From: an uncultured Pseudomonadota bacterium
GTDB taxonomy: Bacteria; Pseudomonadota; Gammaproteobacteria; Methylococcales; Methylomonadaceae
Direction: 5' to 3'
Length of the DNA stretch: 16,794 nucleotides
Assembly (NCBI GenBank): GCA_903875455.1
Contig: CAIQWF010000086.1
Coordinates: forward strand, 1 to 16,794
Shown: one piece after another, positions 2,122 to 16,794 of the stretch
How positions within the stretch are numbered: position 1 is the stretch's first letter
How the letters are laid out: the number at the start of each line of letters is the position of its first letter
Position numbers and translations under genes: made by a program
Notes under the pieces: generated by a model
What the model saw: the letters and a program-made list of their open reading frames with translations, nothing else
The model's database searches: none
What the model was told of the DNA's origin: nothing

Positions 2122-2379
2122 AGTGAAAGATAAAAAATGGTGACACAACTGACAATGTCTTATTCTACACACATACGGCGTTGAACTTAGCAAATTTATC
2201 GTAGAATTTACTATGATGATACTTATGTTCGGGTGTAGAATTTTTAAAGACTCTAAATTTAGGTTTTAGTTTAAGAGTAATGTTTTACCCTAATCCATTA
2301 TTCAAAAAATCATGATAGGGCGAACCTAGAAAGATGTTTTTATCCTGTATGTGTAATTTTATTGTTTGGGAGAATTGTG

Positions 2380-3111
2380 ATGAATAACAAATTTAATAAA
2401 CGTATCGTTTTATTAGCTCTTAATATCGGGTTAATGGTGGGGAGTTTTGCTACAGGTAGTGCCATAGCAGCAGGGTGCGGACAAGCAAAACTGGTAGAAG
2501 CCGGAAGTGCAGGAATCAGTGTGAGTAAAAACACATGCCAGGAACAGTCAAGAGTTAATCTTGGTTCAGTATTGGAATTGTCGCCAGGAAGCAGAATGTG
2601 GTTAAAATTTGACCCCAATCCCACAGGCGAAAGCTTTCAATTGATTTGTCAAAATAGATCAGCGGCTGCGATAAATGTCAGTGTCGCCAGCACTGCTTCG
2701 CCCTGGATTAAACCCCAAGGCTTGAAAAACTGCGATCAATGGAAAAACAACAAACTTGTTTGTGAAGACGCGAGTGGAGAGAAAACCAGCTTTTTTTGCG
2801 CAATTGCCAGTGCTAAGCCAGAAAAATCCAAAAATCCGATGGAAGTGACCACCTCTGTAAAAATGCGTGGAATCCCGATGCCTGCTGTTGTACCTGTGGA
2901 AGATGTTATAAAAAGCATCAAGCCGGACATTGAGTTATGTAAAAGCTTATACAACGTAACTGAAAAAGCAGAAATGAGCTGGACTGTCTCGTTTGGAATT
3001 ATCAAAGACCTGTCAGTCAGTAGTGACAACAAAGACTTTATTACTTGTGTAGAAGGGGTAGTAAAACAGGCTAACTCAAATCAAGACGTTACCGTTAAAC
3101 ACTCTTTCTAG
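2380..3111 (+). CDS. Hypothetical secreted or periplasmic protein, Cys-rich (8 Cys), possibly a lipoprotein
   Basis: A GGGAGA ribosome-binding site sits 9-14 nt upstream of the ATG at 2380. The N-terminus MNNKFNKRIVLLALNIGLMVGSFATGSAIAAGC looks like a signal peptide, with a weak lipobox-like IAAGC. Eight cysteines are spread through the mature part. I do not recognise the family. The stop is only 10 nt before the cyclase gene. Confidence 0.55.
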   Translation: MNNKFNKRIVLLALNIGLMVGSFATGSAIAAGCGQAKLVEAGSAGISVSKNTCQEQSRVNLGSVLELSPGSRMWLKFDPNPTGESFQLICQNRSAAAINVSVASTASPWIKPQGLKNCDQWKNNKLVCEDASGEKTSFFCAIASAKPEKSKNPMEVTTSVKMRGIPMPAVVPVEDVIKSIKPDIELCKSLYNVTEKAEMSWTVSFGIIKDLSVSSDNKDFITCVEGVVKQANSNQDVTVKHSF

Positions 3112-3121
3112 TTGGTAGATT

Positions 3122-5293
3122 ATGAAAATGCGTCCCTTTACACATAAAAAGACCTTAGTTTTTTTTATGGTAGTTGCTGCTATAGTCGGCATATTTACCG
3201 ACTATAGCATGGGGACAAAAGTCGATTACTGGATACACGACTCTGCAATAGTTCATCAATATCGTAAAGAGTGGAAACACACTGGCATCGTAGTGCTGGA
3301 TAATGATGTTCCTTTCAGAGTCACCCGTATTCAGGCATTGCCACTGTTTGCCAGAGCAATTGAGCGTTTGGTTGCGGCAGGGGCGAAAGGCGTTTTTCTG
3401 GATGCCCAGGTATCCAAAGAAATAGAAGGGACAATGCCTTATGCCGTCTGTCTGGAGACTGACAGTAACCAACAAATACAAGCTCGCTGGTCTCGGCCGA
3501 AATGTGGTGTTAGTTCTGCAAATAAAAATGCCTGTACTATTACCAATAGCGAAGCAGGTAACGCACCACTAAAGATGAGCCCAGAAGCTATCGCCCGTTT
3601 TAGAATTGCGCCTTATCTGAATGACACTGATCACTTACCGGAGGATTTGCTTTATGACTTTGAAGCTGCTGCGGCAATTCCTGAAACTGGGGTAGTGGCC
3701 CATGAGCGTCTGGTGAGCAGATTATCTTCACCTATGGGCAGATGGCTGGATATGAGTGATGACCACGCTATTTTTCAACTAGCCAGTTTATTAAATCCTG
3801 AGAAAATTGCCAAGTTATACGAAAAAAATCCTTTATTGGACGAAAACTGTGATAACAATAGAAGATGTCGGCGAATACGATTAAGCAAGCCTATTCATGA
3901 TATCAATATAAAAAACAATCAGTTAATTTTGCCACTCAGCCAGTTAGCCTCCTGCAATAATACAATTGCCAACAAAACAGCAGCTTTGCTGAAAAATAAA
4001 TTAGTCATTTTACAAGTAGCAGGCCCTGCAGAAGCCACTGACATCATTGTAACACCAATGACCACCGCATTGTTTAGCCCTCAAATGATGACCCCTGGAG
4101 CGCAATATCTGGTCGATGAAATAGAAACTTTACTGAATCAAGATTATCCACAACAACCACCGCAAGCGGTGCGGATTCTGCTATTTATTTGTGCAGCAGC
4201 GTCAAGCGTTTGGCTAGGTGCTTATTTTTCTCTGGCTTTTTTGCTATTGAGTGCCACCGCTATTTTTATGATCATGGCCGCACTGTGCTTTTTTTATCCC
4301 ATAGTGCAATTATGGCCAGTCACAGCAGTCATGGTGACTTATTCTTTCGGTGCTTTGCAAATAGTCTCGATGCAGCTAATTTTAGGCGGCAGAAAAGGCA
4401 AAATATTATCGGAAATTTTGCCTAGACAGGTACTTGACCAACTCGAAAAAGTAGACTCGTTCAGGAGTAAACAATGCAATGTTGTAGTGCTGATGAGCGA
4501 CCTTGCAGGCTATACCACGGTCACAGAATTGTTAAAAAAGCCAGAGTATGTCATGGACCTGATGAACGACTATTTAGGCAGCACATCGATAGTGTTACAA
4601 AAAGAATACAATGGTATTTTGGAGGCTTATGTAGGAGATATGGTTTGTTATTACTGGGAATATGAAGAAGAAGAAAAACTTGCTGTTTATAAACAGGTTT
4701 TATCTGCAGCCATCAAATTATCAATTTTACAAAAAAACTTTTTCTCCTCAGTTGCTGAACGATATAAAGAATTATTAACACCGGAAGTACTTAAAGAAAT
4801 TAGCATTCTCATTAATGCCGGTATCGGTATTACTGCAGGCACTGTCGTTAAAGGTAATCTAGGTCCTAAAACAGGATTGAAAAAGTTTGCTATTTTAGGC
4901 GACCCTATTAATTTGGCTTCAAGGGTTGAAAGTTTAACCCGTCATTTTAACACTGAAATTATTGTTACAGGTGACTTTGCCGAAGCGATTACAGGAGATG
5001 AAAACTTAGCAGTTAGGCGGTTAGGAGCAATAACAGTGAAAGGAAGGCTTGTGCCGGAAGTGCTATATGCGCTAGGACAAAAAAGCGATCCCAGATTCAT
5101 GGCGGAAAACATAAACGCATGGGAACAATGGATTGCCGAAATAGAAAAAAAAGCTAATGCCAAAAACACTGCCAATGCCCGCATTATAGCCGCCTGCCCT
5201 ACAATTTATAGCAAAGACTACAAAACGGTTCTGGATTGGAGGGAAAAAGGGGTAATGAATGAAAATGGCGTTTGGCAATTGCACGAAAAATAA
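3122..5293 (+). CDS. Membrane-bound class III adenylate/guanylate cyclase with an N-terminal CHASE2-type sensor (TM, ~310-aa periplasmic domain, 3 TM, cyclase, ~100-aa C-terminal extension)
   Basis: 723-aa ORF. The N-terminal TM helix is TLVFFMVVAAIVGIFTDY. A long extracytoplasmic region follows, then a hydrophobic block (LLFICAAASSVWLGAYFSLAFLLLSATAIFMIMAALCFFYPIVQLWPVTAVMVTYSFGALQIVSMQLILGG). The class III cyclase core motifs are present: VVVLMSDLAGYT (metal Asp), AYVGDMV (second Asp), TAGTVVKGNLG and GDPINLASRVESL (transition-state Asn/Arg). This topology matches CHASE2-cyclase proteins. Confidence 0.75.
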   Translation: MKMRPFTHKKTLVFFMVVAAIVGIFTDYSMGTKVDYWIHDSAIVHQYRKEWKHTGIVVLDNDVPFRVTRIQALPLFARAIERLVAAGAKGVFLDAQVSKEIEGTMPYAVCLETDSNQQIQARWSRPKCGVSSANKNACTITNSEAGNAPLKMSPEAIARFRIAPYLNDTDHLPEDLLYDFEAAAAIPETGVVAHERLVSRLSSPMGRWLDMSDDHAIFQLASLLNPEKIAKLYEKNPLLDENCDNNRRCRRIRLSKPIHDINIKNNQLILPLSQLASCNNTIANKTAALLKNKLVILQVAGPAEATDIIVTPMTTALFSPQMMTPGAQYLVDEIETLLNQDYPQQPPQAVRILLFICAAASSVWLGAYFSLAFLLLSATAIFMIMAALCFFYPIVQLWPVTAVMVTYSFGALQIVSMQLILGGRKGKILSEILPRQVLDQLEKVDSFRSKQCNVVVLMSDLAGYTTVTELLKKPEYVMDLMNDYLGSTSIVLQKEYNGILEAYVGDMVCYYWEYEEEEKLAVYKQVLSAAIKLSILQKNFFSSVAERYKELLTPEVLKEISILINAGIGITAGTVVKGNLGPKTGLKKFAILGDPINLASRVESLTRHFNTEIIVTGDFAEAITGDENLAVRRLGAITVKGRLVPEVLYALGQKSDPRFMAENINAWEQWIAEIEKKANAKNTANARIIAACPTIYSKDYKTVLDWREKGVMNENGVWQLHEK

Positions 5294-5364: not shown

Positions 5365-7227
5365 GTGATTATAATTTTGAAAAAACTCAAGTTAATAAAA
5401 TCAAGCAGGCAACATAATCAGCCGCAAACTATCCCAGACATTTTTGATCAGGCTTTTGAATTACACCAACAAAGACAATTTCAACAAGCGGAAATTTTGT
5501 ATCAGAAAGTATTAAGGAAACAACCCCAACATTTCGATGCGCTTCATTTATTAGGCGTACTTGCCAAACAAAAAGGCCAAAATCAGCGTGCAGTCGATTT
5601 AATCAGTCTCGCAATCAAGATAAATCCTAACATTGCTATTGCTCATTCAAATTTAGGTGTAGCCCTTTATGATATGCAGCTGTTTGAAAAAGCAATCGCT
5701 AGTTATGATAATGCTTTGGCCATCAATCCTGATAATGCAGAAGCATTGTCCAATCGAGGCAATGCCTTGCAAAACCTCAATCGTCATGAAGAAGCATTAG
5801 TCAACTATAATCGCGCTTTAACTATCAGCCCTAATTATTTTGATGCCCTCTACAATCGAGGCAATGCTCTACAAAATCTGGAGCGTTATAATGAAGCCCT
5901 TGATAGCTATAACCGAGCTTTAATTATTAAGCCTAATGATCCTAGCATACTATGCAACCGTGGCAACACTTTGCAAAGTCTCAAACGCTATGAGGAGGCA
6001 CTTACTATTTATGATCAAGCCTTGGCTATCAATGAAAATTATGCAAAAGCACTCTTCAACCGTGGAAGCGTACTACGCTTTTTGCATCGACTTGATGAAG
6101 CTCTGGTTAGCTATAACCGTGCTCTAGCTATTCAACCTGATTCTGCAGAAGTGCTTTATAATCTTGGAAATTTGTTCTATTTTGAAGGAAAAGCAGAAGC
6201 GGCAATCGAATATTATCTGCAAGCTATTGCTCTTAAAAATGACTATTTTGAAGCACGTTACGCATTAGGTTTTCTGTTACTTTCCTTAGGAAAGTTCAAA
6301 GAAGGATGGCAATATTATGAAGCTAGATATAATCCGAATATCCAAAATAAAAATACCATTGCACCTAACTTTCAATTTCCTCAGTGGCAAGGTGAATCGG
6401 TTATAGGTAAAACTTTAGTTATTTGGGGAGAGCAAGGCTTTGGAGATGAAATCCAGTTTTGTCGCTATGTATCTGTTCTTAAATCCCAGGGTGCAGCTTA
6501 TATTAGTTGGGTATGTAAAAAACCTCTCAAAGCTTTGTTTAAAACTTTAGAAGCCGTTGATAATGTTCTTTCTGTGGAAAATGCAAGCTCAATCCTTCGG
6601 CACGATTATTGGACTTTTGCATTAAGCATCCCGCTGCATTGCAAAACTACACTTGATAATATTCCGGCAACAGTCCCTTACCTTTATGCAAACCCAGAAA
6701 AAATAACCACAATTACATCCAAGTTAAGTTCTATGAATGAGCTTAAAATAGGTCTTTGTTGGAAAGGAAACCCTAATTTTCAAAATGATGCTGAACGCTC
6801 ACCCGGTATCGACTACTTCAGGCCTTTATTTAAACTGACTGGAATAAAGTTTTTCACCTTACAGCCTGACACTCGTGACGAGTTCCTTGCAGCTACAGAC
6901 AATGCAGGCGTTGATTTTGGACGTGAACTTGATAAAAGCAGTTTTGAAGAAGCAGCCGCTTTAATTATGAACCTTGATCTGGTGATTACCAGTTGTACCT
7001 CTATTGCTCATTTAGCAGGTGCTTTAAATAAGCCGGTCTGGATTGTTTTACCCTTTAGTGCTGACTGGCGATGGCTAACTAACAGGGAAGACAGTCCTTG
7101 GTATCCAAACACACGCCTCTTTCGACAATCTCAACGTGGTAATTGGAGCGAAGTTATTCAGCATATAGAAAAAAAATTGAAAGAAGTCGTCTTAGGAAAA
7201 AGTCAGATTATATGGCCTCTTTCGTAA
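5365..7227 (+). CDS. TPR-repeat protein with a C-terminal glycosyltransferase family 9 (heptosyltransferase-fold)-like domain
   Basis: 620-aa ORF. At least 7 tandem 34-aa TPR units are visible, with the recurring pattern A.YNRGNALQNL.R..EAL.SYNRAL.I.P. The C-terminal ~230 aa carry a GT9-like motif, DLVITSCTSIAHLAGALNKPVWIVLPFSADWRW, comparable to the WaaC/WaaF motif DSGPMHLAAALG.P. There is no in-frame ATG at the 5' end, so the most upstream candidate start is GTG at 5365. Confidence 0.65.
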   Translation: MIIILKKLKLIKSSRQHNQPQTIPDIFDQAFELHQQRQFQQAEILYQKVLRKQPQHFDALHLLGVLAKQKGQNQRAVDLISLAIKINPNIAIAHSNLGVALYDMQLFEKAIASYDNALAINPDNAEALSNRGNALQNLNRHEEALVNYNRALTISPNYFDALYNRGNALQNLERYNEALDSYNRALIIKPNDPSILCNRGNTLQSLKRYEEALTIYDQALAINENYAKALFNRGSVLRFLHRLDEALVSYNRALAIQPDSAEVLYNLGNLFYFEGKAEAAIEYYLQAIALKNDYFEARYALGFLLLSLGKFKEGWQYYEARYNPNIQNKNTIAPNFQFPQWQGESVIGKTLVIWGEQGFGDEIQFCRYVSVLKSQGAAYISWVCKKPLKALFKTLEAVDNVLSVENASSILRHDYWTFALSIPLHCKTTLDNIPATVPYLYANPEKITTITSKLSSMNELKIGLCWKGNPNFQNDAERSPGIDYFRPLFKLTGIKFFTLQPDTRDEFLAATDNAGVDFGRELDKSSFEEAAALIMNLDLVITSCTSIAHLAGALNKPVWIVLPFSADWRWLTNREDSPWYPNTRLFRQSQRGNWSEVIQHIEKKLKEVVLGKSQIIWPLS

Positions 7228-7517
7228 ACTCGAGTTAATCGATCCCATGTACTTTTAGCACAGCCGCAGTTTAGAAAAGTTTATACAGCTTTTTAATTAT
7301 CAACTCCAAGCTATGATTTGAACTAACATCTTGTTTGGTGTTACTCTAAGAACCTTATAATTTTAAAAAGAAAAAGGGATTTTGTAATAACGAAAAAGTG
7401 TGTTTTCACAATTAGCCGGAACAAATTCAAAGCACCCAAATTTTTTATGTAACTTTTAATTGCGGCTAATATTCAAAAGCTTAACAATAATATTTGAAAA
7501 ATATCAGGAGATATCTC

Positions 7518-8588
7518 ATGAGGATTAAAAAAATAAGAAGGCAAATTTTTCTGCCATTGCTTTTTATGGCAAGCCAATCTGCATATGCAGTATATACTCT
7601 CGACCCTGCTACTTGCCCCGCAGGTACAACAGGGACATTAGCTGGGATAGGTTATATTTCTGCGGGAACCTTTTTCCCTGCAACATTCGGCTCACCTGTT
7701 TATGATTGTACTACTGTACCTGTTGTTTCTGCACCTACAATACAGACTTTACAAATTGAAAGAACAACATCCAATCTTACTAACCAGCATATTATGGATA
7801 AGGTAGTTCACGAATATGGGTCAAATAGTCCAGGTGCTGCTTCAGGCGATTCAAATGACTACAAACCTGATGCCGTTTGGGGAGAAACCAACCTTTCCAG
7901 CCTGACCGAACATAATAGTAAAGTGCCCGGATTTGCTTCCAACATTTATCAATTCGTTGGTGGACTCGACAAGCGGCATGGCGACCTATTCTATGGCGCT
8001 GCACTCACGTATGCTTATACCGACAACAACCTGATAGCCAATACTGATAATGTAATGCACACTGTCGGCGTTACCCCTTACATGGCTTATAAAATTAATG
8101 ACTTTCTATTTGCTTCTGGATTAGCAAGTTACTATTACTCAAACACCAGCGGCAGTGCCGGCACCCGCAATATAGATACCCATGATTATCAAGGTGAAGC
8201 CAATATTAATGCTTTCAAGGTGCTTGGCTCTTTTACCTTGAAAGGACGGGCCGGTGTTCGATATAAACATACCAACTCCTCACAAAAAGGTGCTCCAGTC
8301 GGCAGGGATAATACCTTTGACGAGGTTACCGGCATTGTTGACGCTCAAGTAGACTATAAATTTGATAACGGCCTGACCTTATTTACCGGAGCTTTGTATA
8401 ACCATTATACCCGCGAGGCAAGTGGCGCAAGCACTTTGGTAAGAGGCAATGATGTCGTCTGGATGCGCTATGGTGCTGAATATCCTGTTACTAAAACTTT
8501 AATGGTTGGAGCTAAAATCGAAAACGATCTTAATGATAGATTCACAAATTACCTGACAGGCAGTTTAAATTTTCGTTTAGAGCTGTAA
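7518..8588 (+). CDS. Outer-membrane beta-barrel protein, autotransporter beta-domain-like, with a short passenger
   Basis: An AGGAGA site sits 7 nt before the ATG at 7518. The track ORF begins at TTG 7494. The signal peptide is MRIKKIRRQIFLPLLFMASQSAYA. The C-terminal ~250 aa show alternating hydrophobic/aromatic beta-strand patterning with Gly/Tyr-rich turns (GAALTYAYTDNN..., GVTPYMAYKINDFLFASGLASYYY, LTGSLNFRLEL), typical of autotransporter translocator domains. Confidence 0.5.
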   Translation: MRIKKIRRQIFLPLLFMASQSAYAVYTLDPATCPAGTTGTLAGIGYISAGTFFPATFGSPVYDCTTVPVVSAPTIQTLQIERTTSNLTNQHIMDKVVHEYGSNSPGAASGDSNDYKPDAVWGETNLSSLTEHNSKVPGFASNIYQFVGGLDKRHGDLFYGAALTYAYTDNNLIANTDNVMHTVGVTPYMAYKINDFLFASGLASYYYSNTSGSAGTRNIDTHDYQGEANINAFKVLGSFTLKGRAGVRYKHTNSSQKGAPVGRDNTFDEVTGIVDAQVDYKFDNGLTLFTGALYNHYTREASGASTLVRGNDVVWMRYGAEYPVTKTLMVGAKIENDLNDRFTNYLTGSLNFRLEL

Positions 8589-8675: not shown

Positions 8676-9023
8676 ATGCCTTATTTAAATCTGACTACCA
8701 ATATTTCTGTTTCCGCAACTGAAACTTCCGAGCTGCTAAGCCAGTTTTCACAACTTCTGGCTCAAAAAACAGGCAAGCCAGAAAGTTATGTGATGGTGGA
8801 GATGACTACTGACAAACCGATGTTATTTGCCGGAAACAACAAACCGTTAGCGTACATCGAATGTAAGAGTATTGGACTAAGCATTTCGCAAACTAAACCT
8901 TTAGCCGCCGCTATTTGTCAGTTATTGCAAACTACTTTGCAGATTGATTCAGAACGAGTTTATATCGAGTTTAGTGATTGCAAAGCTGATTACTGGGGCT
9001 GGAACAGCTCAACATTTGGTTAA
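8676..9023 (+). CDS. Macrophage migration inhibitory factor (MIF)-family tautomerase homologue
   Basis: 115-aa ORF, MPYLNLTTNISVS...TGKPESYVMVEM...ECKSIGLSIS...RVYIEFSD...GWNSSTFG. Several MIF features are conserved. Pro2 is the catalytic Pro1 after Met removal. Lys32 sits in the TGKP motif. The SIG motif is present. The C-terminal GWNSSTF is almost identical to mammalian MIF GWNNSTFA. A GGAG site lies 8 nt upstream of the ATG. Confidence 0.8.
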   Translation: MPYLNLTTNISVSATETSELLSQFSQLLAQKTGKPESYVMVEMTTDKPMLFAGNNKPLAYIECKSIGLSISQTKPLAAAICQLLQTTLQIDSERVYIEFSDCKADYWGWNSSTFG

Positions 9024-9039
9024 GCTGTTCGATACTCAT

Positions 9040-9066
9040 GGAGTACAAAAACTGTTTTTGTACTCC
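9040..9066. terminator. Perfect 12-bp palindromic hairpin between convergent genes; candidate bidirectional terminator
   Basis: GGAGTACAAAAA-ctg-TTTTTGTACTCC: a perfect 12-bp stem with a 3-nt loop. It lies 17 nt after the MIF stop and about 100 nt after the stop of the convergent coiled-coil gene. There is no separate flanking U-tract. The A5/T5 runs are inside the stem. Confidence 0.45.
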
Positions 9067-9164
9067 CTAATCAATATCCCAGAAAATTTATTATTTTAAC
9101 AAAACATCAAGCCGCCCTTAGTGGCGATTCTATCCTTTCTGCTTTATTTTTCAGTCTGAGATTT

Positions 9165-10871
9165 TTATTTGATTTCTGCCTGGTTGTCGAGCTTTTTAAA
9201 AAATCCCTTTAAACCAGCTAGAGTTGACTTATTTTCACTGGCAACCTCTTCAGATTGAGTTTGTTTTACTGGTTTGGATTTTTTTGCGTCTGAAGGATTT
9301 AGCGGTTCTACAACCTCTGCCTGTTTGTCCAGTTTTTTAAAAAATCCTTTTAAGCCTCGATTCGAAGAATCTTTATTTTCAGCAACACTTTTTTCTTCAA
9401 CTTGTGCTTGTTTTTTAGGCTGGGATTTTTTTGGCTCCACCGATTCTGATGGTTTTGACGATGCTGTTTCTTCGGTTTTTTTCGCCAGAATTTTTTGATA
9501 AAAGCCCTTAAATTGATCCGGCAAATGCTTGGCTTTATCTGCTATTTCGTCAATCTGCTGTTTCGCAGGATTGAGCATATCTACCGGACTCGCCTGAGTT
9601 TTCTCTACCGTCTTTTTCACTTCTTTGCGTTTCGGATTAAGCTTTTGTTCCAGCTCGATAATCCGTGCTTCCGCTTGCTCCTGTTTGGCTATGATAGCAG
9701 CCGGAATGGTTTTTAATGGCGAGTTTTTATCACTCATCAGCGCTTTTTTAACTTCCAGGTCATATTCCAACCGGAAAATATAATTGCCTTGTTCTGCTAA
9801 CGCCGTATTTAGCTCAGCAATTTTTTGGGTTAACTCCAACTCAACTGTCGCTGGTTTTTTCGCATTTTTAGCCACCAATTCTTTAATAGCAGCTTCACTT
9901 TCCAATAGTTTTCTCTCTAAAGCCTGATTGCTTTCTTGCAGTCTTTCGATAGTTTGTTGCTGTGCCAAAGTTTCTGGTGATCTTGCCCCGGCTGATTTTG
10001 CGGAGCGGTCTGTCAGTCTTTCTTCCAGTCTTTCCAATTGCAGAGTTGCACCTTCCAATTGTTGTTGCTGTTCAAGTTTGCTTTGCTGAGCCTGTGTAAG
10101 TGCTGTTTGCAGTTCTTGTAATTTTTTTTCTGCTTGTTGCTGTTGCTCAACCTGGTTTTGCTGGCTTTGTTGACGTTCTGAGTGTAATTCCTGCAAAGCC
10201 GTTTCTAATTGCTGCTGTTGTTGCACTTCAGCCTGTTGTAGTTGTGCAAATTCTGTTTGAAGCTGTTGCAAATTTTGCTCTAACTGTTGTTGCGTGGCTT
10301 TTGCCTGTTCTGCAAGCTCTGTTTGTTGCATCAAAAATTTTTGCTCTATCTGGCTAACTTGTGCTTTTTGCTGGTTTAGTTCAGTCGTTAATTCGTTTAT
10401 CGCTGCGTCTTTCTCGGCTAAACTGACTTCCCAGCTTTGTTTCAGACTTTCCTGCTTATTCTCAGATTCCTGTAATCGCTGGGTTAATTGTGCAAATTCC
10501 TGATTTTTTTGATTGAGTGATAACTCCAACATTGAAGTCCGTTTTGCTTCAGTTTCCGCAGCCTGTTTGTCTTTTTCTAATTCTTGGTTATTTTTTTCTA
10601 ATTCTGCAATCTGCGCAGCTTGCTCCGTTATTTTAAGTTCTGTCAGCTGGTTTTTTTGTTGCAAACTATTCAAATCAGTACCCAGCTGCATTCGCTGTTG
10701 CTCAGAACTGGTAATTTCTTTTTCTAAGGTGGTGCGCAACTGGTTTAATCGTGACCTGCTTGCTGCTGCCATCATTAACCAAATTAAAATAGCCGACACC
10801 ACAAAACTTATTGCTGCGGCTAACAGCGTGGTTTCCAGATTATATTCCAGACCAAGTAAAAAATCGGGCAT
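9165..10871 (-). CDS. Membrane-anchored coiled-coil protein, Q/E-rich, with C-terminal tandem 48-aa repeats
   Basis: 568-aa ORF with a GGAGA site 7 nt upstream of the ATG. The N-terminal TM helix is LLAAAISFVVSAILIWLMMAAA. About 400 aa of heptad-like, Q/E/L-rich sequence follow, including poly-Q runs. The C-terminus carries two copies of GLKGFFKKLD(K/N)QAE(V/I) spaced 48 aa apart, which corresponds to a diverged ~144-nt tandem DNA repeat at about 9170..9460. Confidence 0.6.
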   Translation of the reverse strand: MPDFLLGLEYNLETTLLAAAISFVVSAILIWLMMAAASRSRLNQLRTTLEKEITSSEQQRMQLGTDLNSLQQKNQLTELKITEQAAQIAELEKNNQELEKDKQAAETEAKRTSMLELSLNQKNQEFAQLTQRLQESENKQESLKQSWEVSLAEKDAAINELTTELNQQKAQVSQIEQKFLMQQTELAEQAKATQQQLEQNLQQLQTEFAQLQQAEVQQQQQLETALQELHSERQQSQQNQVEQQQQAEKKLQELQTALTQAQQSKLEQQQQLEGATLQLERLEERLTDRSAKSAGARSPETLAQQQTIERLQESNQALERKLLESEAAIKELVAKNAKKPATVELELTQKIAELNTALAEQGNYIFRLEYDLEVKKALMSDKNSPLKTIPAAIIAKQEQAEARIIELEQKLNPKRKEVKKTVEKTQASPVDMLNPAKQQIDEIADKAKHLPDQFKGFYQKILAKKTEETASSKPSESVEPKKSQPKKQAQVEEKSVAENKDSSNRGLKGFFKKLDKQAEVVEPLNPSDAKKSKPVKQTQSEEVASENKSTLAGLKGFFKKLDNQAEIK

Positions 10872-11011
10872 AAGTAGTCTCCATATAAAAAATCAACAAG
10901 TAAGAATGTTAAGTTATAAACTGCCAAACTGCTAAAGTAAAGGAATGGCCTGCAAAGCACAAGGCAATTGCCCCCTACTTCTAACCAGTATGAAGATATT
11001 GACAGGGCATT

Positions 11012-11063
11012 ATAAACAAAACAACCGCTCTGCTTGCCACAAGGTGACTCGCAGGAGCGGTTG
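11012..11063 (-). terminator. Rho-independent terminator of ppiD
   Basis: Inverted repeat CAACCGCTC (11022..11030) and GAGCGGTTG (11055..11063), with the loop possibly forming a sub-stem. A plus-strand A-rich run AAACAAAACAA gives UUGUUUUGUUU directly after the hairpin on the minus strand. It is 27 nt downstream of the ppiD stop. Confidence 0.55.
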
Positions 11064-11089
11064 CCAATAACACAATTGAAAGATGAAAA

Positions 11090-13064: not shown

Positions 13065-13141
13065 TGGCGGAGTGGACGGGGCTCGAACCCGCGACCCCCG
13101 GCGTGACAGGCCGGTATTCTAACCAACTGAACTACCACTCC
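13065..13141 (-). tRNA. tRNA-Asp (anticodon GTC)
   Basis: The reverse complement reads GGAGTGGTAGTTCAGTTGGTTAGAATACCGGCCTGTCACGCCGGGGGTCGCGGGTTCGAGCCCCGTCCACTCCGCCA. It has a cloverleaf, a GTC anticodon in the loop CCUGUCACG, and a 3' CCA. It is near-identical to E. coli tRNA-Asp. Confidence 0.95.
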
Positions 13142-13147
13142 TTAATC

Positions 13148-13223
13148 TGGTGGGTGCTGAGGGGTTCGAACCCCCGACCCTCGCCTTGTAAGGGCGATGC
13201 TCTCCCAACTGAGCTAAGCACCC
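13148..13223 (-). tRNA. tRNA-Val (anticodon TAC)
   Basis: The reverse complement reads GGGTGCTTAGCTCAGTTGGGAGAGCATCGCCCTTACAAGGCGAGGGTCGGGGGTTCGAACCCCTCAGCACCCACCA. The anticodon loop is CUUACAA, it ends in 3' CCA, and it is very similar to E. coli tRNA-Val(UAC). The plus-strand 64-aa ORF at 13064..13258 is an artefact of these tRNAs. Confidence 0.95.
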
Positions 13224-13231
13224 GACTAAAG

Positions 13232-13254
13232 AAGATGCTAGTTTACAGCATCTT
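13232..13254 (-). other. 8-bp hairpin overlapping the hupB stop codon, directly upstream of tRNA-Val; possible processing site or attenuator
   Basis: AAGATGCT-agtttac-AGCATCTT. The hupB TAG stop at 13238..13240 lies inside the stem, 15 nt before the 5' end of tRNA-Val. There is no strong U-tract. Confidence 0.35.
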
Positions 13255-13510
13255 TTAAACTTTTACCAGCTTTAAATGCAGGAATCTTTGCTGAAGGGAT
13301 AGTAATCTCTGCTCCGGTCTGTGGATTTCTGCCTTTGCGCTCTGCTCTTTCTTTCACAGAAAACGTCCCAAACCCAACCAGAGCAACGGATTCACCTTTT
13401 CCAAGCGCAGTTTTTACCGCATCAAGAAAACCATCTAAAGCTTTTCCTGCATCTGATTTTGTTAAGTCAGAAGCGGCAGCAATTGCGTCTATTAGTTCTG
13501 ATTTATTCAT
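13238..13510 (-). CDS. hupB: DNA-binding protein HU-beta
   Basis: 90-aa protein [11 protein letters not shown]...[45 protein letters not shown], a classic HU fold with an Arg/Pro-rich DNA-binding arm. An AAGGGG site sits 6 nt upstream of the ATG at 13510. The track ORF has a 21-codon spurious N-terminal extension. Confidence 0.9.
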
Positions 13511-13874
13511 TATTTTCCCCTTAGGTAGTTTGTTTATTGTGTATTCTGTGAAAAAACATGCCAAATTCCCCACGTTAAGTGTGCATAACGGTAAGAACCT
13601 GCGCTATTTATATCAACGCCCTTATGGAGTGTCAAGCTTTTAAACCGGCTAGAAACCTTGTCTGCTAAGGTTTTGCCGATTTTTGATAGTCTTTTCACAA
13701 TTGCATTTACAAGCTGATAACCACTAAATTGAAATTCTAGTTCTCACTCAATTTCCCCAATTGAATGTTTAAATTTATTACATGCACTGTCTTTTTTACC
13801 AAGCATTAACAATCTACACTGATTCAATTAAGTTATTTTTTTCCATTCATTAAATTTTTTTACTTGGGGGAAGC

Positions 13875-14924
13875 ATGTGCGCTGAACAACAACGCTGGCG
13901 CGGCCTTATGTTGGGAACCGCTGTCGGTGACTCAGTAGGCTTGGCGGCTGAAGGCATATCGCACCAACGCAATGCCAAAATATTTCGTCAGCAATGGCGG
14001 CAGCGCTTTTTTATCCGTTGGGGCATGTGCAGTGATGATACGGAACACACTGTCTTTGTCGCACAAGCTTTATTGGCTCATCCGACCCAGGTTGAGTCTT
14101 TTCGCAACCGTTTGGCGTGGAGTTTGCGCTGCTGGTTTCTGGCATTACCTGCTGGCATTGGTTTGGCGACCGGCAAAGCCATCATTAAATTATGGTTAGG
14201 ATTTAATCCGAAACACAGTGGTGTTTATTCCGCCGGGAATGGTCCTGCGATGCGGGTTGCGCCCATTGGTGCATTTTTCGCCCAACAACCAGCTTTGTTA
14301 AACGAATATCTGACCGCCTCAACCTTAATCACCCATACCGATAAAAAAGCCTTAATCGGGGCAAAAGCTATTGCAGAAACAATTGCCTGGGTATGGCGTG
14401 AAAATTTCACTAAAAAACCAGCGTTAGCTGATTTTATTGCGCTGTTGGGTCAAATTGATGCCGATACAGAATGGCAATCGTTGGTGAATCGGATTGAACA
14501 CGGGCTACAGCAAAATTTAACTGTCAATCAGTTTGCTGATTTGATGGGCTTAAGTCACGGAATTACCGGCTATATCTATCATACAGTGCCGATGGTGCTC
14601 TATGCCTGGTACAAACATTTTGGAGATTTTGCGCAAACTTTAACCAGCATTTGGGATTGTGGCGGTGATACTGATACAACCGGGGCAATTGTCGGAGCTT
14701 TAGCTGGCAGTGTGGCCGGTGAGCAAGGGATTCCGGCTGACTGGATAAACGCGATTTTGGAATATCCGCATTCGGTGAGTTTTTTACAAAAGCTGGCAGA
14801 CCGGCTTGCTAAACGTGAACATAAGCCGGTGTTTTGTTTTGCCCCCGCCATCATTTTGCGGAATTTATTTTTCTTGGGCGTAGTATTGCTGCATGGTTTT
14901 AGACGCTTGTTGCCACCTTATTAA
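13875..14924 (+). CDS. ADP-ribosylglycohydrolase family protein (DraG/ARH-like) with a hydrophobic C-terminal tail
   Basis: 349-aa ORF. ARH signature motifs are present: GTAVGDSVG near the N-terminus, CSDDTEHT, and C-terminal GGDTDTTGAIVGALAGSVAGEQGIPADW. A GGGGGAAG site lies 6 nt upstream of the ATG. The last ~30 residues (VFCFAPAIILRNLFFLGVVLLHGF) are strongly hydrophobic, which is unusual for this soluble enzyme family. Confidence 0.75.
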   Translation: MCAEQQRWRGLMLGTAVGDSVGLAAEGISHQRNAKIFRQQWRQRFFIRWGMCSDDTEHTVFVAQALLAHPTQVESFRNRLAWSLRCWFLALPAGIGLATGKAIIKLWLGFNPKHSGVYSAGNGPAMRVAPIGAFFAQQPALLNEYLTASTLITHTDKKALIGAKAIAETIAWVWRENFTKKPALADFIALLGQIDADTEWQSLVNRIEHGLQQNLTVNQFADLMGLSHGITGYIYHTVPMVLYAWYKHFGDFAQTLTSIWDCGGDTDTTGAIVGALAGSVAGEQGIPADWINAILEYPHSVSFLQKLADRLAKREHKPVFCFAPAIILRNLFFLGVVLLHGFRRLLPPY

Positions 14925-15064: not shown

Positions 15065-16794
15065 TTATGTCAAATCATCCTGATTCACAACCACAGGAGA
15101 TTCTGCCAAAACTTTTTCCAGAATGGTGCCTTTCACCAGTTGCGAAAATACATCCGCAACACTGTTGCCGCCTAAAATAGCCAGCGGAGCCATACTCTCT
15201 GCCAGTTTTTGTGCTAACGCTTTATCCGCAAATGCCTGCATCGCCGCGATAAATTGTGGTGATACTGCCTGCGCCTGCTGCACAGTGGCGGCAACATTGG
15301 CTTGCAGCTCTTCAATCTGTTGTTGCAGCTGTGCTTTGCTAATGGCTAGATTCAAATCGGTTTGCGCTTTATGGCGGGTTAATTCCGCCTGATTAATGCT
15401 GTCTAATTGTTGCTGCTTGGCAAGGTCTGCTTCCAGCCGCTGCTTTTCCACGCCAATCTCATTATTGAGTTTGGCTAAATTCACCGCAAGCTGCTTGTTA
15501 AAAGTGGCAATATCCAAATCCAGTTGCAATTGTTGGGTTTCGGCGCTGGTTTGCAGAATTTTTTGTTTTATCGCCTCCTGTTGCTGTTTCAATTCCAAAT
15601 TACGTTTTTCGCTGGCAATTTCCAGGGTTTGCTGTACCACACTGTGCTGGGCGCGAATCAATAATTGCGAAATAGCCGCGTCCTGAATCGCCACATCCAA
15701 CACTTCCACATCATAAACGTGCATTCCATTTTCCGAAAACAGCAAGCCTGCTCTCACACCCGCTTCATTAGCAGTGCCGAGCAAGGTATCACGCACTAAC
15801 CCAATCGCATTGGCATAAAAAGTTTCGATGCCGTATTTTTTAATCGCATAGCGCAAAATTGAGCGAATATGTTCGGTCAAAAATTTCACATAGTTTTCAA
15901 TATCAAACCATTTATTCGGCTCGCCGGTAAAATTAACCTGATACGACACTAATAATTGTACCGGGCAAAAATCGGCAGTTTCCACCTCAATCCGATCTGA
16001 AACCTTGTTATGCAAGGAGCGCAAATAGACGGTTTTTATCGGTTGCTCATCAGTTTTTGGGGTGCCGGTGGACAAGTAAATGGTTTGCAGGGTTTCGTCA
16101 TATTCCAGCAAATAAGTTTGCGGCCCGACGATGACTTTACGGTCGCCATTTTTGCTGACCACCATCACTGCATAGCCGGTCCAGACATCAATCGACACCG
16201 CACCTTCATATTTGGTATCTAAGGTAATGGTGCGCGGTTTGGTGAAATCCTGTCTGCGGTTGAATTCTTCACTGGCAATAATTGCAGGAGCTGGAGCGGC
16301 ATCAGACAAGGCGCCACGTTGTAAATAAGAACGTGCTTGTTGCTCATCAACAAAATCACTGCCCAATGTTTTTTTCTGATTTAACGCCATTAACTGGGTG
16401 TTATATTCCAACGCTTCTTTATTGCCGGGAAACCAGATTGCCACCAGTTTCGGGTCTATTACCCGCCTTGCAATCACTTGTTTGCGCGGGTCAGGTAAAA
16501 ACATGCAGGGGCCACGCTGCAAAGTAATTTGCCCACTCAAGCGGTTCAACACATAACGCGCTTCACCTGCCGGAATTGCCACCGCATAATTGATTTCCTG
16601 ATCACTGTAACGGACGATGGCATGTTCAGGACGCGGAAAATAAATCATCTGCTCTTTGCCGGTGATAAACAGTTCATCGCCGACCTGATAGGCTTTGCCA
16701 TTTTCTTGGTATGGGGCAATGACCTTGATGTAAATGCCGCTGATTTCATTCAGCTCAATCGCCCGAAATTTAACGGCACCGTCTTTTTTGATAA
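15065..16794 (-). CDS. Major vault protein (MVP) homologue; C-terminal ~576 aa visible and the N-terminus is beyond the window edge
   Basis: I extended the reading frame by hand and it stays open from the track's Met at 16648 up to position 16794, so the gene is 5'-truncated by the window. The translated sequence aligns with human MVP as I recall it. MVP-repeat-like unit: [46 protein letters not shown] versus MVP [26 protein letters not shown]. Shoulder region: [28 protein letters not shown]...[25 protein letters not shown] versus MVP [28 protein letters not shown]...[61 protein letters not shown] versus MVP [32 protein letters not shown]. A ~150-aa Q/E/A-rich helix follows, as in the MVP cap-helix. 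The tail is [21 protein letters not shown]. Confidence 0.8.
   Translation of the reverse strand, partial: [575 protein letters not shown]

Follow-up and report, generated by a model that had tools for sequence, protein, structure and literature searches.

The short amphipathic helices with which MinD targets membranes have been examined as tandem arrays. In Bacillus subtilis, a tandem MinD helix joined through a short linker gives markedly higher membrane affinity and binding that is insensitive to loss of the membrane potential (PMC13537761), and two MinD tags in tandem have also been used elsewhere (PMC5471200). Among anchored helical proteins, overproduced ATP synthase subunit b bridges the internal membranes of Escherichia coli with a regular spacing of 26 nm (bioRxiv 10.64898/2026.03.03.708934). 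Mic60, in which coiled coils occur together with a transmembrane (TM) segment and an amphipathic helix that binds lipid, affects the shape of intracytoplasmic membranes (ICMs) in alphaproteobacteria and is reported to be specific to alphaproteobacteria and mitochondria (bioRxiv 10.1101/2022.06.14.496148). ICM stacks have been imaged in the methanotroph genus Methylococcus, and the biogenesis of the pMMO-bearing ICMs of methanotrophs is described as 'not known' (PMC9445010). Here we consider a gene for a membrane-anchored coiled-coil protein, at positions 9165..10871 on the minus strand of a 16,794-nucleotide contig (CAIQWF010000086.1, assembly GCA_903875455.1; the window) from an uncultured gammaproteobacterium of the family Methylomonadaceae. 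It encodes a protein of 568 residues in which elements resembling those of the systems above appear to be combined.

We propose that this protein is a TM-anchored rod able to bind membrane at its far end, serving as a tether or scaffold, and assign this reading a probability of about one half. The features that suggest it are a single N-terminal TM helix, a long helical spacer whose length differs between lineages, and an array of up to four basic amphipathic helices at the C-terminus.

Architecture and topology

The protein can be divided into the following segments, listed from the N-terminus with their window coordinates.

10833..10871, minus strand (residues 1-13): acidic N-terminal tail MPDFLLGLEYNLE with a net charge of -3, predicted on the periplasmic side or in the ICM lumen
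10761..10832, minus strand (residues 14-37): single TM helix, the sole hydrophobic segment
10032..10760, minus strand (residues 38-280): uninterrupted Q/E/L-rich helix, a spacer of variable length, from AlphaFold2, periodicity and homologue indels
9957..10031, minus strand (residues 281-305): hinge containing Gly, Pro and Ser, pLDDT below 50 and without secondary structure
9864..9956, minus strand (residues 306-336): short AlphaFold2 helix that separates the hinge from the signature module
9639..9851, minus strand (residues 341-411): signature module of the family, a pair of helices connected by SPLKTIPAA (…N-Y-I-F-RLEYDLEVKK…IPAAIIAKQEQAEARIIELE), from alignment, profile and AlphaFold2
9519..9638, minus strand (residues 412-451): lysine-rich linker with the short conserved helix LNPAKQQIDEIADKAKHLP, from alignments and the AlphaFold2 helix at 435-448
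9474..9518, minus strand (residues 452-466): ancestral amphipathic helix DQFKGFYQKILAKKT (copy 0), an AlphaFold2 helix that forms the C-terminus of most homologues
9315..9455, minus strand (residues 473-519): repeat unit 1, 141 nucleotides, a disordered K/E/S/P linker followed by GLKGFFKKLDKQAE, with the motif at 9315-9356
9171..9314, minus strand (residues 520-567): repeat unit 2, 144 nucleotides, a linker followed by GLKGFFKKLDNQAE, with the motif at 9174-9215

An earlier description of this gene, made from the letters of the DNA and their translation (the sequence-only reading), had placed one TM helix at the N-terminus, and the hydropathy profile bears this out. Kyte-Doolittle means above 1.6 occur only in 19-residue segments starting at residues 11-21, with a maximum of 2.55. 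The tail that precedes the helix carries the motif MPxFLLxxEYNLETT, which the alignment shows to be kept in the close family. In all 22 full-length members the N-terminal flank has a charge of 0 to -3 and the flank that follows the TM helix a charge of +1 to +5. By the positive-inside rule, an acidic N-terminal flank and a basic flank after the helix point to a cytoplasmic rod, so that the tail is predicted to lie outside, in the periplasm or the ICM lumen, and the remainder of the protein in the cytoplasm. ZipA and EzrA have the N-out/C-in orientation predicted here.

An AlphaFold2 model of the window protein, calculated with a 14-sequence family alignment, consists of a single helix over residues 12-280, in which the mean pLDDT (predicted local distance difference test) of 10-residue blocks is at least 90 from about residue 61 to 240, and of downstream helices at residues 306-336, 341-380, 385-411, 435-448 and 452-466. 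The tail is disordered save for short helices at 505-519 and 555-564, with pLDDT below 50 in the linkers. The sequence-only reading had described some 400 residues of continuous coiled coil with poly-Q tracts. Of this description the long helical rod stands, but its continuity extends over about 240 residues, the remainder being segmented by Gly and Pro. The protein is likewise Q-rich and not truly polyQ, as its longest glutamine runs are one QQQQQ and two QQQQ. Its overall composition is 14.6% Q, 12.7% E, 12.3% L, 10.9% K and 10.6% A. The C-terminal region is lysine-rich, as had been noted, with 20.4% lysine in residues 412-568 versus 7.3% in the preceding part.

A simple heptad score proved only moderately informative for the rod, and a periodicity test was used instead. 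The hydrophobic periodicity is 3.5 over residues 45-160, a value that 0.5% of shuffles reach, and 3.6 over residues 160-280, which is reached in none of 2000. This periodicity fits amphipathic or coiled-coil helices, and a strict heptad is not kept throughout. Matches of the rod to PDB sequences are generic coiled coils only. At 0.15 nm per residue, the rod would measure about 35 nm over residues 38-280, or as much as about 50 nm if the following helices are included.

This rod differs greatly in size between homologues. It carries large indels in the alignment, and proteins with the same two ends range in length from 178 to 688 residues: the Methylomarinum vadi protein, of 178 residues, is nearly without rod, and homologue P0005 has 688. 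In the Methylobacter-type homologue (P0011 and L015, 2630..4351) the rod consists of tandem blocks, four or five in number and each about 40 residues long (AEKDAA.SALT…NEQAERAGQLEQ.LQ), and in P0005 the signature module itself is present in two copies, with RLEYDLE at residues 309 and 447. The family enlarges by internal duplication at several levels.

C-terminal repeats and amphipathic helices

The motif GLKGFFKKLD is found in exact form at residues 506-515 and 553-562, where it is followed by KQAE and NQAE, respectively, and the second of these copies, in repeat unit 2, ends two residues before the end of the protein. Both copies had been recognized in the sequence-only reading, which missed a third, diverged copy, QFKGFYQKIL, at residues 453-462. 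It is this third copy that is conserved across the whole family, with K455 and F457 invariant in the alignment of the close family. Most relatives end right after it, so the copy at residues 453-462 is taken to be ancestral.

The two downstream units match the diverged tandem DNA repeat of about 144 nucleotides that had been proposed: their lengths are 141 and 144 nucleotides and their DNA is 80% identical over 128 aligned positions, with 29 further gap columns. The DNA alignment scores 35, where shuffles average -84 and reach -47 at most, and the protein alignment of the units scores 90 versus a maximum of 42 in 2000 shuffles, 10 standard deviations above. A repeat search recovers the two best-conserved blocks (41 nucleotides at 88% and 40 nucleotides at 78%). 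Tandem Repeats Finder does not call the 141/144-nucleotide repeat, because it is too diverged and contains indels. Compared codon by codon, the two units differ by five synonymous changes and one non-synonymous change in the 14-codon motif, and by five synonymous and 18 non-synonymous changes, plus indels, in the 31 aligned linker codons. The duplication is therefore old enough for silent changes to have built up, and selection has kept the motif while the linker drifted.

Copy number, which had been expected to vary, ranges from one to four among relatives. Most have a single copy; three are present in the window protein and in P0004, and four in P0003 and in P0005. Similarity between units is 79% within P0003 and 62% within P0005, and in both proteins the units are nearer to each other than to the units of other proteins, so that copies must have been gained, or homogenised, independently in different lineages.

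The motif segments have the highest hydrophobic moment in the protein (Fauchere-Pliska moment 0.40-0.77, charge +2 to +4), and a HeliQuest-type lipid-binding discriminant (D) gives 1.25-2.05 for the three copies. The motif of repeat unit 1 reaches a moment of 0.77 and a D of 2.05, and copy 0 has a D of 1.37-1.70. For the membrane-targeting sequences of MinD, taken from PMC5471200 and PMC13537761, D is 1.51 in E. coli (KGFLKRLFGG) and 1.63 in B. subtilis (KGMMAKIKSFFGVRS). Plotted on a helical wheel, L507, F510, F511 and L514 share an arc of 100 degrees (40-140 degrees), with the lysines opposite. AlphaFold2 predicts a short helix at each of the three copies (452-466, 505-519 and 555-564). Most homologues end 0-8 residues from the motif, and a C-terminal helix of this kind is near-universal, extending to distant members that include the 178-residue M. 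vadi protein (VKNFYQKWLS, LKGFYHKFIS, VKGFYRKWIT, IKGLMQKLIPFK). The core of the family motif is K-G-F-[FY]-x-K-[IL]. Like the targeting sequences of MinD and FtsA, the helix is amphipathic and net positive, and a flexible linker leads up to its place at the very C-terminus. The copies are therefore predicted to be basic amphipathic membrane-binding helices, a prediction supported in silico, and the earlier suggestion that GLKGFFKKL is an amphipathic, basic and potentially membrane-binding element is strengthened by the high moment and the MinD-range discriminant.

Signature module, family and distribution

Between rod and C-terminal helices lies the segment by which the family is recognized. 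Its family-wide pattern is Q-x-N-[YH]-I-x-RLEYDLE[VI]K…P-x-x-x-IPAAI[VI]-x-KQ…ARI-x-ELE, with N363, R367, L368, E369, Y370, D371, L372, K375, P390, A391, Q397, L407 and E408 as invariant columns of the alignment, and a profile of the module region recovers the entire family and hardly anything else. Modelled alone with AlphaFold2, the module forms helices and no compact fold (predicted template modelling score, pTM, 0.32), and a Foldseek search of the PDB with this model gave no match (best E = 5.3). We propose that it may be an oligomerisation or partner-binding segment, for which the absence of a compact fold is as expected. The first helix of the module (IAELNxALAEQxNxIxRLExxL) has sub-threshold matches to Pfam SlyX in 8 of 13 family sequences, the best at E = 3.4e-4; the window protein scores 12.5 bits versus a cut-off of 30 (residues 341-466, 9474..9851). 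This resemblance may reflect shared heptad composition only.

By sequence, the protein belongs to a small, undescribed family. A word-indexed protein search returned 14 clusters, of which the named ones are metagenome-assembled genomes (MAGs) of Methylococcaceae and Methylobacter; the same kind of search with a diverse alignment of the module was swamped and gave three matches. A hidden Markov model search with the C-terminal module against 1.84 billion representative proteins found 24 at E <= 1e-3, 18 of them at E <= 1e-10. The distant members include one on a contig labelled Methylovulum and one annotated as 'hypothetical protein [Methylomarinum vadi]', from a cultured species. A pattern scan of 185,579 GTDB species genomes gave three loci (a Methylobacter sp. 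MAG, a Methylococcaceae MAG and an uncultured Methylomonas), which is a lower bound since strict patterns miss variants such as LEYDLEIK, and a metagenome pattern scan gave at least one. All relatives that carry an organism label, namely Methylobacter, Methylomonas, Methylovulum, Methylomarinum and Methylococcaceae, are free-living gammaproteobacterial methanotrophs.

Neither the whole protein nor its C-terminal module matched an entry of Pfam, NCBIfam, PADLOC or PHROGs above threshold, and PDB sequence searches with two profiles returned generic coiled coils, none above threshold. The sub-threshold look-alikes are SMC (14 bits), ERM_helical, SlyX, YtxH, DUF948, FtsA_C and an Rz-like spanin (E = 2.5e-4), and are best explained by coiled-coil composition. 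SMC (TIGR02168), which two homologues bear as a JGI label, was rejected as a coiled-coil artefact: the 14 bits compare with a cut-off of 567, and neither ATPase head nor hinge is present. The misleading database label 'chromosome segregation ATPase' is hereby corrected.

The gene and its surroundings

The signals around the gene are as follows.

10879..10882, minus strand: ribosome-binding site GGAG, 7 nucleotides before the ATG of the coiled-coil gene, read from the sequence
11014..11065, minus strand: intrinsic terminator of ppiD, a hairpin followed by UUUUGUUU, upstream of the coiled-coil gene
9041..9067, no strand assigned: perfect 12-bp hairpin with a 3-nucleotide loop (GGAGTACAAAAA / TTTTTGTACTCC), between the convergent coiled-coil and MIF genes

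The coding sequence, 568 codons and a stop codon, starts with ATG in the list of open reading frames. Since this start is preceded by GGAG and homologues align from Met1, the gene model appears sound. The terminator of ppiD, whose hairpin is followed by a U-run, has an RNA fold of -28.3 kcal/mol (z = -5.8), and none of 200 shuffles folds as well; a strong terminator after ppiD, together with a ribosome-binding site of its own, suggests that the coiled-coil gene is a separate transcription unit. At its other end, the hairpin at 9041..9067 folds with -14.8 kcal/mol (z = -4.2) and is without a clear U-run; it is probably a bidirectional terminator. A terminator-like site at 9127-9112 was rejected, its fold being no better than that of shuffled sequence (z = -0.26). 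Some 50-65 nucleotides upstream of the ATG, Tandem Repeats Finder reports a direct 8-nucleotide repeat, GGCAGTTT, present twice on the minus strand (10918..10936). It overlaps a possible promoter, TTTACT-17-TATAAC, and may be a regulator-binding site.

The neighbours of the gene in the window are hupB, tRNAs, ppiD and MIF, ordinary gammaproteobacterial housekeeping genes. The adjacent PpiD has closest homologues of up to 93% identity, and the nearest named ones, at about 62%, are from Methylobacter spp. The MIF/tautomerase-family gene (8676..9023, plus strand; E = 3.8e-23) is convergent with the coiled-coil gene, a pairing shared by the closest relatives (L002 and an ENA contig) and absent from more distant ones. 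The same holds for the order hupB-ppiD-gene-MIF, which is common only to these closest relatives; elsewhere the neighbours are unrelated. In Methylobacter tundripaludum the order is tig-clpP-clpX-lon-hupB-ppiD, followed by an SDR gene in place of the coiled-coil gene. In the window, an ADP-ribosylglycohydrolase gene of opposite orientation (13875..14924) breaks this block beyond hupB, and tRNA-Asp(GTC) and tRNA-Val(TAC) lie between hupB (HU) and ppiD (13065..13223 and 13238..13573, both minus strand).

Further genes of the window stand apart from the coiled-coil gene. At 15065..16648 on the minus strand lies the gene for a 527-residue protein with matches to Pfam MVP_shoulder (E = 3.8e-27), Band_7/SPFH and Vault_3, which resembles the eukaryotic major vault protein and is without a match in PADLOC and PHROG scans. 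Four genes form a run on the plus strand (2362..3111, 3122..5293, 5365..7227 and 7494..8588). The second encodes a protein of 723 residues in which a weak CHASE2-like region accompanies a class III adenylate/guanylate cyclase domain, and the third a 620-residue multi-TPR protein with a weak GT9-like C-terminus. The first and fourth, of 249 and 364 residues, gave no match in Pfam, NCBIfam, PADLOC or PHROGs.

Proposed role and alternative explanations

As a tether or scaffold, the protein would be a bitopic inner-membrane protein in which the TM helix fixes one end and the rod is cytoplasmic. The rod may assemble as a coiled-coil oligomer some 35-50 nm long, to which the signature module would supply oligomerisation or partner contact, and the C-terminal helices would attach reversibly to an anionic bilayer on its cytoplasmic face. 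The avidity of binding would be heightened by tandem copies, of which the window protein has three, spaced by flexible linkers of about 35 residues; as a second MinD helix raises affinity in B. subtilis, a natural three-helix array may be expected to show high avidity. Such a protein could form a scaffold that arches along a single membrane, or a tether or spacer that bridges two. If this is correct, a permanent anchor, the TM helix, and a tunable, reversible one, the MinD-like array, would be paired in nature through a freely evolving rod, a design that could set inter-membrane distances or hold a scaffold against membranes.

The most obvious target, although a speculative one, is the ICM system, because the carriers of the gene are packed with ICM stacks. 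By analogy, the protein might be a ruler or tether with its TM helix in one bilayer, a coil of lineage-specific length, and one to four MinD-like helices gripping the neighbouring cytoplasmic face, and might so space the pMMO-bearing ICM stacks. We think it quite unlikely that this whole picture is right; it would make the family a gammaproteobacterial functional analogue of Mic60 or of the subunit b bridges. The building and stacking of ICMs in methanotrophs bears on methane mitigation and methanotroph engineering, and the family is a genetically testable candidate, of which cultured M. vadi has a minimal version of 178 residues.

Several observations weigh against this interpretation. For its ICM part, the family is patchy, with 24 clusters among 1.84 billion representatives, which argues against an essential role; no labelled match comes from M. 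tundripaludum or Methylococcus, and the gene is absent at the ppiD locus of the former. In a comparison of about ten loci, no conserved neighbour points to a pathway or partner. For the protein as a whole, the topology is predicted by the positive-inside rule, and membrane binding is predicted from physico-chemical scores. Such scores are fairly easily reached by short basic peptides: about 4% of the 12-mers in the protein exceed D = 1.34, some through charge alone. The signature module, without a compact AlphaFold2 fold and without a Foldseek match, lends the proposal no structural relative. Lastly, the K-x-F-[FY]-x-K core is stricter than many membrane-targeting helices need, and a protein-docking motif would also fit.

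That fit is the starting point of the alternative in which the protein is a cytoplasmic scaffold and its K-G-F-[FY]-x-K-[IL] repeats dock a protein partner, whether cytoskeletal or from division or chemotaxis, in the manner of a multivalent recruiter like EzrA or ZipA. We regard this as doubtful. Three observations favour it: the core of the motif is strongly conserved, with its two invariant residues in the close family and a recognisable form in distant members; an N-out/C-in protein with a long cytoplasmic helical region follows the EzrA/ZipA plan; and tandem copies on disordered linkers are typical of multivalent docking sites. Yet the distant members vary the residues of the motif while keeping its amphipathicity and positive charge (SWLNRLKNKYLVS, VLYKVKSLLS, IKGLMQKLIPFK), as lipid binding predicts, and the extreme C-terminal position matches that of MinD/FtsA-type membrane-targeting sequences. 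No conserved neighbouring gene suggests a partner, and Pfam gives no EzrA or ZipA match up to E 10.

A location on the opposite side of the membrane, as an envelope-spanning periplasmic rod of the TolA, FimV or Rz i-spanin type that reaches from the inner membrane to peptidoglycan or the outer membrane, appears very unlikely. The charge distribution is opposite to that of an N-in/C-out protein in all 22 full-length members, although a TM helix followed by coiled coil is a plan common to TolA and spanins, and a weak PHROG match to an Rz-like spanin (E = 2.5e-4) covers residues 21-133, no more than the TM helix and the beginning of the coil. The spanin profile has 122 positions, about a quarter of the length of this protein. 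Neither a lysis cassette nor an o-spanin lies nearby, and PADLOC gives no match. The gene does adjoin ppiD, which encodes a periplasmic chaperone, but this linkage is confined to the closest relatives and a terminator divides the two genes. Pfam and NCBIfam show no LysM, TolA C-terminal, SPOR or OmpA-like domain. The sequence-only reading had named a conserved housekeeping envelope protein of the FimV or TolA type, present in free-living relatives, as what would speak against its own interpretation; the free-living relatives are there, but without the corresponding domains and in a family of 24 clusters. That interpretation, a eukaryote-like effector with which an intracellular bacterium of the Legionella or Coxiella kind mimics host tethers or SNAREs, is scarcely credible. 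It has composition in its favour, in the form of a long Q/E-rich coiled coil and weak sub-threshold matches to the eukaryotic coiled-coil families ERM_helical (E = 0.02) and ELKS (E = 3e-4), and a Q-rich 'eukaryote-like' coiled coil is no evidence for an effector. All labelled relatives are free-living methanotrophs, and the exhaustive search of 1.84 billion representatives found no homologue outside the methanotroph group. The neighbours are housekeeping genes, with a PpiD nearest to that of Methylobacter among named proteins; relatives and PpiD together place the window in an uncultured lineage of the methanotroph family to which Methylobacter belongs, and not in an organism of the Legionella/Coxiella type. 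An uncleaved N-terminal TM anchor also argues against secretion.

Comparison with known systems

Several known proteins share part of the architecture. SMC proteins resemble the window protein in their long, Q/E-rich coiled coil. Rz-like i-spanins (PHROG 739), TolA and FimV share an N-terminal TM helix followed by coiled coil, whereas the window protein is much larger than a spanin and carries C-terminal amphipathic helices. An assignment to the i-spanins was rejected since the topology is opposite and no phage genes are nearby, and one to FimV or TolA since there is no LysM, peptidoglycan-binding or TolA C-terminal domain, nor pilus or tol-pal genes at the examined loci.

Subunit b and Mic60 share with the window protein a TM anchor and a long helical stalk. 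The coiled-coil protein differs from both in having no mitofilin or ATP-synt_B domain in Pfam, so for Mic60/mitofilin the analogy is in architecture only. Mic60 lies mostly in the periplasm or intermembrane space, unlike the cytoplasmic rod predicted here. In this respect EzrA and ZipA come closer, since each has one TM helix at the N-terminus, only a very short tail outside and its bulk in the cytoplasm, and EzrA is also similar in size and largely helical or coiled coil. A conserved patch lies at the C-terminus of EzrA, and its arch geometry places both ends near the membrane. However, EzrA (PF06160) was rejected as a relative on the absence of a profile match, although the N-terminal TM helix and the predicted cytoplasmic helical body fit. 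There is no sequence relationship with EzrA or ZipA; EzrA belongs to another phylum, the Firmicutes, and the coiled-coil family is patchy within one methanotroph group and without a link to division genes.

The closest likeness in detail is that of the C-terminal helices to MinD and FtsA. In both cases a short, basic amphipathic helix follows a flexible linker at the C-terminus, with similar moment, charge and discriminant, and the family core is almost superimposable on that of E. coli MinD (K-G-F-[FL]-K-[KR]-L). The MinD resemblance is convergent, as homology is not claimable for a stretch of 10 residues. In MinD and FtsA the helix is attached to an ATPase or actin fold, whereas in this family it is carried by a TM-anchored coiled-coil rod and occurs as a natural array of up to four copies on disordered linkers of about 35 residues. 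The separate elements are already known; it is the tandem array of MinD-like helices on a TM-anchored rod that is the unusual feature of the family.

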